Shown: positions 24,058 to 29,644 of the stretch, in pieces | Layout: every line of letters starts with the position of its first letter | Numbering within the stretch: the stretch's first letter is position 1 | Assembly (NCBI GenBank): GCA_964636705.1 | Contig: CAZWUJ010000007.1 | Coordinates: 22,264-86,263 of the forward strand | Direction of reading: 5' to 3' | Origin: an uncultured Vicinamibacteraceae bacterium | GTDB taxonomy: Bacteria; Acidobacteriota; Vicinamibacteria; Vicinamibacterales; UBA8438 | DNA length: 64,000 bases | Notes under the pieces: model-generated | The model's input: only the letters and a program-made list of their open reading frames with translations | The model's database searches: none | What the model was told of the DNA's origin: nothing | Program-made: the position numbers and the translations under genes

Positions 24058-27000
24058 CTAGCCGCGTCGGCGCCAGCGCCAGAGGGCGAGCAGGCCCAGA
24101 ACCGGGACGCCGACCCAGAGCGGGGTCCAGACGCCGTCGTGCGACCCCGACGCCAGCGGCGCGGGCAGCAGCTCGGCAGCATCCGCCGATTCCTCCATCC
24201 GGTAGCCCTCGATGTTCATCGTCGTCAGTCTCGGTCGCGATTCGTTCCAGCGGACGAACTCCTCGGCCTCCGCCGCCGCGGACTCGATGTCGGCGCCGAG
24301 AGCCTCCTCCATCGCCGTGCGGTAGGCGTCGAGAGCCGGACCCGGAATGTTCATCACGGCGCCCTGCTCCAGGACGTAGCGCAGCAGCCGGGGATTGCCG
24401 CAGGTCTGCTCGGAGCAGCCGACCCCGTGCGCGGCGACGCTGTCGACGTGCTCGCGCAGGAGGCGATCGAGCGTCGCATCGTCCGCTGACCAGTACCCCT
24501 TGCGAATCGTCTCGACCATCCGGCCGGTGATGTCCTGGTAGGCGTGAGGCGAGTGCTCGTCGAAGAACGCCTTCAGGTCGAGGTCGTGCTTGTCCTCGAC
24601 GTACACGGCGAACGACTCGTTCCACATCGCGTCGTCGACAGTCTCCGGCACCGTGGCGTCCCAGCCCCACAGGTACTCGACAAACGCGCGCATCTCGCCG
24701 GCGCCGGCGTAGCCCTCGCGCTGCATCCCCTCGATCCAGACGGGGTTGACGTAACGCGTCCGGAACTCCGCGCCGAGGAACTTGTCGATGCCCGTCATCT
24801 CGGGCCGGCCGGGGTCGCGCGTGTTGGTGACGATCAGCTGCGGGCTCTCGCCGTCGATGTTCCGGACGGCCGCCGCGAGGCCGCCCATGTACATGAAGAA
24901 ATCGTCGTTGTCGAGGGCGCCGTAGAGCATGGTGGAGCTGCTGTGCACTACCTTCTCGGTACCGGAGAGGGCCAGACGGAACACGTCCTCCATCGGCTCG
25001 CCCCAAAATCCGTTGCCGTAGCCGTGGCCCATCTTCGACAGGTACTCGTCGGCCATCGGCCGGTCGCTGTCCCAGGTGCCGCTCGCGGCGGCGATTCGCG
25101 ACGTGTTCAGGTTGAACGTCCCCGGTGGCTCGTCGAAGATGCGCACCCCGGCGCGCCTGTCGGCTTCCTCCTCCGCGTATCCGCGGTCGATGAGCGTCGC
25201 CCGGGTCGCCAGGTAGTGACGGCGGACGAAGTTCTCGGCTTCTTCGAGCACCTTCACCCGCTGCACCGCTTCATCCATCAGCCGCGTGACGTTGTTGAAC
25301 ATCCCCTCGGCGGCGGAGGCAATCACGATGTCCACTCGCGGACGGCCGAGCTCCCGCGCCGGAACCACCTCGACGTCGACTACGTTGCCGCGAGCATCCC
25401 AGACCGGGCGCGTACCGAGAAGGTGGAAGATCTGGGACTCCAGCACTCCCTCGTGCCGCATCGTCTCGGTGCCCCAGATCACGAACGACACCTTCTCCGG
25501 GTACCGCCCGTGCTCGGCGACGTGGTCCTCCAGCATCTGATCGGCGAGCGAGACGCCGAGGGTCCACGCGGCCGGCTTCGGCACCTTGTCGGGGTCGATG
25601 CCGTAGAAGTTCTTGCCCGTGGGGTAGGCGTCCGGATTGCGGATGGGCTCGCCCCCGTTCCCCACGGGGACGTAGCCGCCGTCGAGCGCGTGCAACAGGT
25701 GGCCGAGTTCGCGCGGCCCGGACTCCACGATGCGCCGCTCCATGTCCGCCGCCATCACCGTCGTGTCGTCCGGCAGCAGGTCGCGGTCGACCGACACGAT
25801 GGCGTCCACCGTGCTCGCGCGCATCTCCTCCCCCGGCGTACGGCCGAAAGCATGCAGCCCATAAGGGATGTTCTGCCCCCGCAACTCGATCAGGTAATCC
25901 TCGATGGCGTGCAGCGTGTCGTGCTCGATCTCCGCCCCGGTCCCCAGGTCCAGGCCGAGGTCCTTGACCATCCCCAGGTCGTGCGCCTGCCGCCGGATCT
26001 CGTCCGCGTACGCCTCGGCGAGCTGCACGTTCTTGTGGACGTTGTTGTGATAGTCGTCGACGCTCTCGCTGAGCGCGGCCAGCTCGGACAGCAGCCCGCT
26101 CCTGACGAACGGCGGCACCATGTGGTCCACCAGCGTCGCCATGCCGCGGCGGCGCGCCACCAGTCCCTCCCCCACCACGTCGACGTTGTAGACGTACAGG
26201 TTGGGCAGGTCGGCGATCAGCGCATCCGGCGCGTCGGCCGCCGACAGTCCCAAATCCTTGCCGTCGAGCCATTCGAGGGTGCCGTGTGTCCCCAGGTGGA
26301 TAACCGCATCGGCGTCGAATCCGACCGGTTCGGGCGCCCGCAACCAGGAATAGGTCGCGACATACTGGTGATGCGGCGCCAGATCCTTGGCGTGATACAG
26401 CTTCTCGCCGTCCGCGCCCCACCCGCGCGCCGGCTGCGGCAGCACCGCGACGTTGCCGAAGCGCAGGGCCGGGATGATGAAGCTCCCGTCCCTCGCCATG
26501 AGGTCCACGTCCTCCGGCCTGCCCCAATCGGCGACCACCTTCTCGCGCAGCTCCGGCGCATAGCCCTCGAGCCAGCGGAGATAGTCACCCATCCAGGCGC
26601 GCGCGGCGCCGGCCTGGGTCAGCATCGCGTCGAGCTCGCCGGGGGCGTACCCGCCGACGTTCCGCGCCCGGGTGATCATCTGATCGAGAAGCCCTTCGGA
26701 CGACAGGTCGATATCGTCTCCGCCGAGGTCGTACCCGGCCGACTGCATCCGCTGGAGGACGTTCGCGAGCGACTCGGCGACGTTCAGGTAGCTGGCCCCT
26801 ATGCCGGCCTTTCCCGGCGGGTAGTTGTAGAAGAGGACCGCCACCCGTTTGTCGGTGTTGGCGGTGGCGCCCAGCGCCGCGTAACCCAGCGCCCGCCGCA
26901 CGGCCAGCGTGATGCGCGAGGAGATTGGCTGACTGGAGATGATGGTCAATCCCGTGTCTGGATCCGTGCGGCGCTCCTTGCTTCCGACCACCGTCGGCGC

Positions 27001-29075: not shown

Positions 29076-29644
29076 CCGCGCCTCCGCAGCGTGTGCAGAC
29101 CGCCGAGCGCGACGACCGCCGCGAACCCCAGGGCTACGGCAGGGTGCATGGAGGGCCTGACTGTGTCTCCGGCAGCGAAGTTCATCGCCTGGGCGGCGCC
29201 CCATCCCCCGGCCACGCCGGGAGCGGCGGCGACGGCCAGTCCCAGCACGCCGAGAGCGGCCAGCGCGTCCTCACGAACCGAGCGCGCCGCAAACCTCGGG
29301 ACGCGTGCCGCGGAAACCGCCGCAAAGGCAACGACGCCCGCCGCCAGCAGGCACGCGAGCCACAGCGGCAGACCGTACCCGTCCAGCACCCTGCTCCACA
29401 GCCCGGCTGCCGTTCCGGCGACCAGCGGAGCAACCAGCGATGCCGGAGTTCCGCCCGGACGAACGAGCGACAGACCGGCAGTGGCCGCGACGAGCGCGCC
29501 GGTCCATCCCGGATCCGGGCGGAGCCAGACGCTTCCGATCAGGAACCCGACCGCCAGCGTCAGGGCGCCGTAGCGATCCCGCGCCGCGGTCGCGAAGACC
29601 GAAGCCGCGAGCGCGCACAACAGTCCGACGGCATGTAGCAGCAA
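29072..29644 (-). CDS. Polytopic membrane protein of unknown function; first gene of the CobN-like operon
   Basis: 190 aa with about 6 hydrophobic helices. Translationally coupled to the ExbB-like gene. Confidence 0.65.
   Translation of the reverse strand: MLLHAVGLLCALAASVFATAARDRYGALTLAVGFLIGSVWLRPDPGWTGALVAATAGLSLVRPGGTPASLVAPLVAGTAAGLWSRVLDGYGLPLWLACLLAAGVVAFAAVSAARVPRFAARSVREDALAALGVLGLAVAAAPGVAGGWGAAQAMNFAAGDTVRPSMHPAVALGFAAVVALGGLHTLRRRG

Follow-up and report, generated by a model that had tools for sequence, protein, structure and literature searches.

A CobN-like protein predicted to be exported, with ExbB-like and DUF2149 partners, in an uncultured Vicinamibacteraceae bacterium: a sister variant of the HmuS/BtuS-type module

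What does a CobN-like protein do when no AAA+ ATPase of the kind that accompanies the classical chelatases is encoded nearby, and when a proton-channel-like gene pair lies beside its gene? The question is raised by a locus on contig CAZWUJ010000007.1 of an uncultured Vicinamibacteraceae bacterium (Acidobacteriota; assembly GCA_964636705.1). The stretch analysed, referred to as the window, comprises 64 kb (positions 22,264 to 86,263 of the contig), and all coordinates given without a locus name are window positions. Its minus strand carries an operon for a CobN-like protein, a MotA/ExbB-like channel protein, a DUF2149 protein and a further membrane protein, divergent from a gene for a TonB-dependent receptor. 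We consider it rather probable that the locus specifies an HmuS/BtuS-type envelope machine built around an exported CobN-like protein that is tethered to the inner membrane; judged from its sequence, the locus represents a sister variant of the periplasmic dechelatase modules of the HmuS/BtuS type. HmuS itself was shown to be a dechelatase, and its structure solved, only in 2025, and according to the authors of that work a function cannot so far be given to most of the approximately 10,000 CobN/ChlH/HmuS homologues (PMC12583661).

Four minus-strand genes are packed tightly between 29644 and 24058. The first (29072..29644, TTG start) encodes a polytopic membrane protein of 190 amino acids, denoted T. 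The GTG start of the second gene at 29075 overlaps the TGA stop of the T gene (GTGA), and its product of 228 amino acids (28389..29075) is a MotA/ExbB-like proton-channel protein (PF01618, E = 7.8e-12) and a homologue of HmuU. The third gene (28091..28423), whose ATG is preceded by GGAGGAA, encodes a DUF2149 protein of 110 amino acids (PF09919, E = 3.3e-28) that is homologous to HmuV, and the fourth (24058..28080) encodes the CobN-like protein (PF02514, E = 1.3e-300), the candidate catalytic subunit. At its longest, the CobN-like open reading frame (ORF) starts at 28119; the ATG at 28080, preceded by GAGGTG, gives a protein of 1340 amino acids, which is also the called length of a homologue with 90% identity. 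An earlier note, made from the letters of this DNA alone, had described the same gene order with the GTGA overlap, a CobN homologue of 1340 amino acids and a divergent receptor. ORFs and Pfam matches bear out this description, and the start codon is supported by the GAGGTG and by the gene calls of homologues. The note had also reported that neither CobS/CobT nor ChlI/ChlD is present, and for the window this holds: no such AAA+ partner was found in a scan of all ORFs of at least 180 amino acids for Walker A motifs, the sole ORF with the motif being an ABC (ATP-binding cassette) ATPase (59799-60563). Likewise, no recurrent AAA+ family was found among the neighbour-gene clusters of related loci.

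In the N-terminus of the CobN-like protein, MEYAVADDRRRAAGCGRIGRLAR-IAAGFVLLTVAMAGSAAA-QE, basic residues are followed by a hydrophobic core of 18 residues and then by AAA-QE; the C-terminus, WTPLWVGVPVLGLLALWRWRRRG, is hydrophobic. The note had read these ends as a signal peptide and a transmembrane (TM) anchor, in keeping with the finding that reference CobN and BchH sequences have neither segment and that both are confined to the exported clades described below. An exhaustive representative search yielded 5288 relatives at E <= 0.001, and most of the best 150 cluster representatives have hydrophobic segments at both termini. These features predict an exported protein that faces the periplasm and is tethered to the inner membrane. 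It scores under the cut-off of all NCBIfam CobN and BchH equivalog models (800 versus 1619 bits for the best CobN model), although its homologues are publicly annotated as 'cobaltochelatase subunit CobN'; an exact-sequence look-up of the window protein gave no record. Among structures in the PDB, HmuS (9d26, 450 bits) is the top match, about equal to CobN of M. tuberculosis (7c6o, 448 bits), and a C-x5-C-x-N motif in the C-terminal extension is common to the window protein and HmuS. Exported CobN-like proteins linked to TonB receptors are not new as a concept: as cited in PMC6460266, Rodionov et al. predicted such proteins, named 'BtuS', in 2003, and BtuS1 and BtuS2 were studied in B. fragilis (PMC6460266). 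Being related to CobN, with hydrophobic segments at both ends, an adjacent receptor and no AAA+ ORF in the window, the protein belongs to this exported ('BtuS'-type) superclade. BtuS is defined loosely and in Bacteroidota; the window protein fits the broad definition and differs in its acidobacterial host and in that no B12 riboswitch was found in the window.

Phylogenetic placement relies on neighbour-joining trees, first of 281 columns and then of 1084 columns with 100 bootstraps. The window protein and its relatives, denoted clade W, are monophyletic, as are the HmuS clade and a gamma-proteobacterial clade (bootstrap 100/100 each), and these three exported groups are united against CobN and BchH with the same value. 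In these trees clade W stands at sister level to the HmuS clade, both being part of the exported superclade. Representatives of clade W in the tree derive from Pseudomonadota, Planctomycetota, Caldimicrobium, Methylosinus and Porticoccaceae, and the clade also occurs in Acidobacteriota, Alpha- and Gammaproteobacteria, anammox Planctomycetota and Nitrospirota. A similarity to the HmuS clade in a CobN phylogeny, as envisaged in the note, is hence found at the level of the superclade (100/100) but does not extend to membership, as the HmuS sequences form a clade of their own (100/100). By its sequence the window protein is related to HmuS but stands outside the HmuS family in the definition of Nath et al. 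2025 (PMC12583661), from whom we take the defining features used below.

The superfamily-wide part of the active site is retained. His-538 is essential in HmuS and lies in the motif HFG(T/A)HG, which is found across the superfamily (PMC12583661); the window protein has HLGTHG at residues 595-600, with His599 corresponding to HmuS His-538 and Glu638 to HmuS Glu-577. This His/Glu dyad in domain III and the PF02514 catalytic fold are also shared with the class I chelatases CobNST and ChlHID, which are cytoplasmic, insert metal and depend on AAA+ subunits and ATP; the window protein, in contrast, is predicted to be exported, has no AAA+ partner found in the window and is linked to a proton-channel pair.

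The membrane partners of the CobN-like protein were compared with those of metagenomic HmuS-clade loci. The window ExbB-like protein matches HmuU (31% identity, E = 4e-19), the DUF2149 protein matches HmuV (42% identity, E = 9e-23), and T is unmatched, so that of the correspondences the note had suggested for HmuS, T, U and V those of U and V stand and that of T does not. The DUF2149 protein has one TM helix with an asparagine and an aspartate (Asn24 and Asp27) that are invariant in its alignment, as well as a predicted small periplasmic beta domain. The ExbB-ExbD-TonB system and the Tol and Mot stators combine a MotA/ExbB channel with a small single-pass protein that has an invariant TM aspartate, and on these sequence features the DUF2149 protein is a candidate ExbD-like partner of the ExbB-like channel. 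Different from these stators, the genetic partner of the ExbB-like/DUF2149 pair is the CobN-like enzyme and not TonB, and the two stay together in an archaeal locus with no TonB-dependent receptor.

The conservation of the module was analysed in a scan of one genome per species, which returned 577 confirmed relatives. All counts of module genes refer to the best 80 loci, which are the closest relatives and not an unbiased sample, with neighbour genes grouped by homology clustering of all ORFs. These loci comprise approximately 39 from Acidobacteriota, 13 from Alphaproteobacteria, 12 from Gammaproteobacteria, 12 from anammox Planctomycetota and 2 from Nitrospirota. Most of the acidobacterial loci belong to Vicinamibacterales, with identities of up to 90% (88-90% amino-acid identity for metagenome-assembled genomes labelled Vicinamibacterales), and the alphaproteobacterial carriers include the cultured Aurantiacibacter flavus and Altererythrobacter fulvus. 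The ExbB-like gene is present in 66 loci, DUF2149 in 64 and the T family in 57, all directly upstream and co-oriented, and in these 57 loci T is located directly upstream of the ExbB-like gene. A receptor gene within at most 10 kb is found in 34 of the 42 loci with at least 8 kb of sequence on both sides. Since the gene block recurs among these 80 genomes, which belong to five phyla, its grouping is not due to chance. Vicinamibacterales relatives show, in eight loci (L004, L005, L010, L011, L015, L024, L055, L063), an additional downstream block of a cytochrome c'-like protein, two DUF6644 proteins, an unannotated 297-amino-acid protein and a DUF6152 protein, which is absent from the window.

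More distant loci show which parts of the module are constant. In the anammox genera Brocadia and Jettenia (L065-L076), the order is ABC ATPase, receptor, DUF4430, CobN-like, ExbB, DUF2149, where DUF4430 is presumably related to transcobalamin and intrinsic factor. In the Nitrospirota loci a DUF2162 protein occupies the position of T, and a further locus (L089) has the order DUF2162, ExbB, DUF2149, CobN-like. An archaeal locus of Methanoculleus type (L090:7001-13430) consists of genes for a CobN-like protein, DUF2162, MotA_ExbB and DUF2149 beside FeoA/FeoB, and has no TonB-dependent receptor. Because this locus retains the enzyme, the membrane protein, the channel and DUF2149, the quartet is the conserved core of the module, to which the receptor seems to have been added in these bacterial loci. 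For the same reason the ExbB-like/DUF2149 motor probably serves the CobN-like protein, in agreement with the statement of the note that the protein comes with its own energiser.

The closest described system is hmuYRSTUV of Bacteroidota (B. thetaiotaomicron HmuS, PDB 9D26; PMC12583661, PMC13227078). Like the window, it combines an exported, doubly anchored CobN-like protein with a MotA/ExbB-like HmuU, a DUF2149 protein HmuV and, encoded directly before the ExbB-like gene, a small polytopic membrane protein, and both share a TonB-dependent receptor (with a CarboxypepD_reg domain in locus L084), the HxGxHG motif with His-538 and the C-terminal C-x5-C-x-N. Of the hmu set, R-like, S-like, U and V genes are present in the window together with a T-position gene that has no detectable homology to HmuT. 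The window differs in the gene order, T-U-V-S instead of S-T-U-V, in its T protein, and in a control region with a tandem repeat that appears to be of the two-component type. One metagenomic HmuS-clade locus has the order receptor, HmuY, HmuS, HmuT, MotA_ExbB, DUF2149; the contig of a second starts at HmuS, followed by HmuT, MotA_ExbB and DUF2149. A third locus (L085:5219-13173) encodes an HmuS-clade protein of 1469 amino acids beside a solute-binding protein, FTR1, a P19-like Iron_transport protein, an FtrD-like protein, FtsX/ABC and ferritin, and is strongly iron-related.

Putting these parts together, we infer the following course of events. The TonB-dependent receptor would import a metal-loaded macrocycle, that is, a chelate of the tetrapyrrole type. 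The most likely role of the exported enzyme, on the analogy of HmuS, is to bind the imported metallo-macrocycle and remove its metal: the macrocycle would be bound in a central cleft between His599/Glu638 and Asp1059-Asp1060, and the metal would be removed or exchanged without an AAA+ ATPase. The three membrane proteins, namely T, the ExbB-like channel and a DUF2149 protein whose aspartate is embedded in the membrane, would constitute a complex driven by the proton motive force and dedicated to the CobN-like protein; it may drive the conformational cycle of the enzyme, or move the product across the inner membrane (through T). A proton-driven complex is the most economical reading, because no AAA+ partner is found nearby, the periplasm is expected to be without ATP, and the channel and DUF2149 remain linked to the enzyme where no receptor is present. 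A PepSY_TM protein encoded behind the receptor would probably supply periplasmic reducing equivalents, and the two divergent promoters are probably under the control of a response regulator of the OmpR type that acts on 11-bp repeats. Among candidate substrates haem takes first place, by analogy only; because HmuS haem ligands such as His-254 are missing, a different metal or macrocycle is about as likely.

A number of observations weigh against this interpretation, and the most direct concern the active site. HmuS is defined by the motif LSLDHxxEFMGG with His-1209 and Glu-1212, by the site-1 haem ligands Met-79 as well as His-254, and by a methionine-rich insertion in domain IV (PMC12583661). 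The window has LDNDDFFMYMGG in place of LSLDHVYEFMGG in HmuS: Asp1059-Asp1060 correspond to HmuS Asp-1208 and His-1209, so that His-1209 is replaced by Asp1060, and Glu-1212 is replaced by Met1063 (Met or Gln in clade W). The Asp-Asp pair is found in 77 of 86 related CobN-like ORFs and Asp-His in none, eight of the nine others being truncated ORFs; in the HmuS clade LSLDHxxEFMGG is intact in 12 of 14 representatives, with the His-1209 and Glu-1212 columns conserved in all 14. At the column of His-254 the window protein has Phe and clade W either Leu or Phe, versus His in 12 of the 14 HmuS-clade sequences. The methionine-rich insertion is absent as well: the segment at B. thetaiotaomicron positions 690-925 has 28 residues in the window and clade W, versus 106-443 residues, rich in methionine, in 13 of 14 HmuS-clade sequences. 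With these residues replaced, the chemistry may differ and might even run in the forward direction. Of the partners, no HmuY domain was found in the window or in its close relatives L001 and L002. T shows no similarity to HmuT or DUF2162 in hidden Markov model and profile-profile comparisons, for which the HmuT and DUF2162 alignments comprised only 2-4 sequences, and on this comparison it is only a positional analogue of both. A DUF2149 profile gave no ExbD or TolR match in the PDB, with no detectable sequence similarity, and a single-sequence AlphaFold2 model of the protein is of low confidence (predicted local distance difference test, pLDDT, 59.8), too weak for a fold test. Purified HmuS works in vitro without HmuTUV (PMC12583661); the motor is therefore not strictly needed for the chemistry in HmuS. 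The trees are of the neighbour-joining type only, and the branching order of the exported clades is split 43 versus 57. Finally, no response regulator that would match the 11-bp repeats is encoded in the window, and the signal-peptide region of a fifth operon gene, described below, is out of frame with its body. As the HmuS motif, His-254, the insertion and HmuY are lacking and T is unlike HmuT, haem dechelation by the window protein is proposed by analogy only. The note had called the locus an hmu-type module, and this label fits in part: the HmuU and HmuV homologues and the exported superclade agree with it, the separate clade and the features just listed do not.

The TonB-dependent receptor (29871..32234, plus strand, 787 amino acids) consists of an N-terminal CarboxypepD_reg domain (PF13620), a Plug (PF07715) and a barrel (PF00593), and carries a TonB-box-like sequence, DTVVVTASR. 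Its best NCBIfam model is TonB-B12, which outscores the haemin model and is itself far below its cut-off (215 versus 600 bits). No His is present between its FRAP/NPNL-like boxes, which we take to be the haem-receptor motif. The following gene, in the same direction, encodes the PepSY_TM inner-membrane protein (32237..33433, plus strand, 398 amino acids; PF03929, E = 4.4e-58), a candidate periplasm-facing reductase; a PepSY_TM-type gene is found near the module in 22 of the 42 fully flanked loci. The physiological electron donor of HmuS is unknown (PMC13227078).

The region between the divergent operons contains an 11-bp tandem direct repeat of approximately three copies (29722..29752; TTCCTGAAGAn on the minus strand). 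Tandem Repeats Finder reports a period of 11, and the pattern has two overlapping matches versus 0.01 expected. The repeat is kept at the same place in Vicinamibacterales relatives in 2-8 copies while the flanking DNA diverges: approximately 3 copies in the window, approximately 4 in L002 (8320-8360) and at least 8 in L001 (8277-8360). A regulator-kinase pair is present in 10 of the 42 fully flanked loci, and in six relatives with an OmpR-type response regulator and histidine kinase beside the module, a two-copy repeat is also found just upstream of the response-regulator gene. For the regulators and kinases of these relatives, the top-scoring models are TIGR01387 and TIGR01386, two-component families for heavy metals, with scores below cut-off in both cases. 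By its position and conservation, the repeat is a candidate binding site of an OmpR/PhoB-type response regulator. A conserved TATAGA at 29696-29691 may serve as a -10 element; a sigma-70 promoter scan of the intergenic region found nothing. A cobalamin riboswitch was detected neither in the whole window at the gathering threshold nor in 28000-30400 at E <= 10, and a search of the window for Zur-box-like sites gave none even when 3 mismatches were allowed. Inspection of the intergenic region by eye, with no Fur-box search run, revealed no Fur-type site.

Against this background, how close is the window protein to HmuS in function? It might be a true functional orthologue, that is, a haem dechelatase that acts in the periplasm and, for iron acquisition, splits haem into Fe(II) and protoporphyrin IX as happens in Bacteroides and Porphyromonas; this we regard as unlikely but worth keeping in view. 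The module composition with homologous U and V, the shared exported superclade with the equivalent of His-538, the reductase-like PepSY_TM neighbour, and the iron transporters that adjoin HmuS-clade and archaeal relatives are what one would expect of an orthologue. They are set against the separate clade (100/100) without His-1209, Glu-1212, His-254, the methionine-rich insertion or a detected HmuY, against a receptor that scores best on a B12-receptor model and has no His between the boxes, and against its surroundings, as no iron-transport gene was recognised in the annotated region of approximately 20.5-36.2 kb (the rest of the window being unscanned) and the intergenic region, inspected by eye with no Fur-box search run, gave no Fur-type site.

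Equally tentative is a second possibility: that clade W is a periplasmic enzyme that extracts or exchanges metal from a substrate other than iron haem (Co, Ni, Zn or Cu tetrapyrroles, or corrinoids), with the T-ExbB-like-DUF2149 motor replacing the AAA+ ATPase. We argue that the specificity for substrate or metal differs between the exported clades, because clade W has a carboxylate in place of the second axial histidine and lacks the site-1 ligand His-254, and because the three clades differ in regulation. Regulation is by iron in Bacteroidota and, it appears, by Zur in the gamma clade, and the window has a candidate site of the two-component type. If this proposal is true, one ancient machine shared by bacteria and archaea would exist in metal-specific versions: the HmuS clade for iron, the gamma clade with its Zur control for zinc, and clade W under two-component control.

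Zinc or cobalt acquisition is the theme of another explanation, according to which the locus is equivalent to PA1922-PA1925 of P. aeruginosa, a gene set of the Zur regulon that combines a TonB receptor with CobN-like, MotA/ExbB-like and DUF2149 proteins (PMC4542158, PMC9431628, PMC11761036). The set has been known since 2015 and its function is still unknown (PMC4542158, PMC11761036). We hold this equivalence to be improbable. The four domain types are the same (PMC4542158, PMC9431628), and the two-component systems adjacent to relatives of the window resemble heavy-metal sensors; PA1922-PA1925, however, has the order receptor, CobN-like, ExbB, DUF2149 without a T gene and is under Zur control, from which the window differs in gene order and in the lack of a Zur-box-like site even with 3 mismatches. 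As a proxy for PA1923 we used the gamma clade (Vibrio, Alkalilimnicola); a profile search with four gamma-clade proteins gave 36 matches, none of them from Pseudomonas. The Vibrio paucivorans locus L087 has the PA1922-PA1925 order, with an exact Zur-box-like palindrome, TGTTATGTTATAACA, at L087:7997-8011, 73 nt upstream of the receptor gene. The gamma clade, which is separate from clade W (100/100), thus appears to be zinc-regulated and yet keeps both HmuS-type histidines and the glutamate. In addition, the annotated recurrent neighbour families included no recognisable znu or COG0523 genes.

It is no more probable that the enzyme works in the forward or exchange direction, as a periplasmic chelatase for the re- or trans-metallation of corrinoids or porphyrins obtained by salvage. 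In its Asp-Asp motif the window protein is more like CobN of the actinobacterial type (DSDDYFQYHGG) than like HmuS (the CobN literature gave no useful residue-level clues), the best receptor model is BtuB-like, and anammox members of the clade have the presumably transcobalamin-like DUF4430 between the receptor and the CobN-like gene. On the other side stand the missing cobalamin riboswitch and the receptor match far below cut-off, and the only known periplasmic energy source for an insertion would be the proposed motor itself. An ordinary cytoplasmic CobN of aerobic cobalamin biosynthesis, misread through a wrong start codon, would agree with the public annotation of the homologues and is practically out of the question, being contradicted by the equivalog scores (800 versus 1619 bits), the homologue-backed start site, terminal hydrophobic segments absent from real CobN, the lack of a CobS/CobT-like P-loop ORF in the 64 kb and the separation of CobN at 100/100.

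The HmuS/BtuS-type envelope machine is therefore the interpretation we retain, with clade W as a well-defined sister family that spans soil Acidobacteria, marine Alpha- and Gammaproteobacteria, anammox bacteria and Nitrospirota. To the known exported CobN-like proteins it adds an active-site signature of its own (Asp-Asp for Asp-His), a fixed set of partners, a candidate control element and cultured carriers. The conservation of the receptor-less archaeal quartet sharpens a testable idea, namely that a proton-driven motor may replace the ATPase subunits of classical chelatases.

The tandem repeat and the PepSY_TM gene are additions to the content of the earlier note, as is the fifth gene, P415 (22929..24025, minus strand), with which the operon runs past 24058. 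P415 encodes a secreted beta-propeller without a Pfam or NCBIfam match, as is the case for T. Intact homologues of 415-423 amino acids follow the CobN-like gene in L001 and L002, and the gene is present in 22 of the 42 fully flanked loci and in 32 of the 68 loci with enough downstream sequence. The window copy is frame-broken: compared with L002 (96% identity in the CobN-like protein), 2 nt are missing after 23979 and another 149 nt after 23930, which reflects either a pseudogene or an assembly error. An AlphaFold2 model of P415 is an all-beta propeller (pLDDT 88.3), for which a fold search returned only generic beta-propellers (sialidases, CylK) at approximately 10% identity and no clue to a ligand.

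Beyond P415 the window carries a molybdopterin oxidoreductase gene (20471-22576). On the other side of the module, the PepSY_TM gene is followed by a DUF1800/DUF1501 gene pair (33430-36170), which is also found in L002, is absent from most other loci and is probably unrelated to the module. Two tRNA genes (18128-18201 and 6238-6311) are the only Rfam matches of the window.

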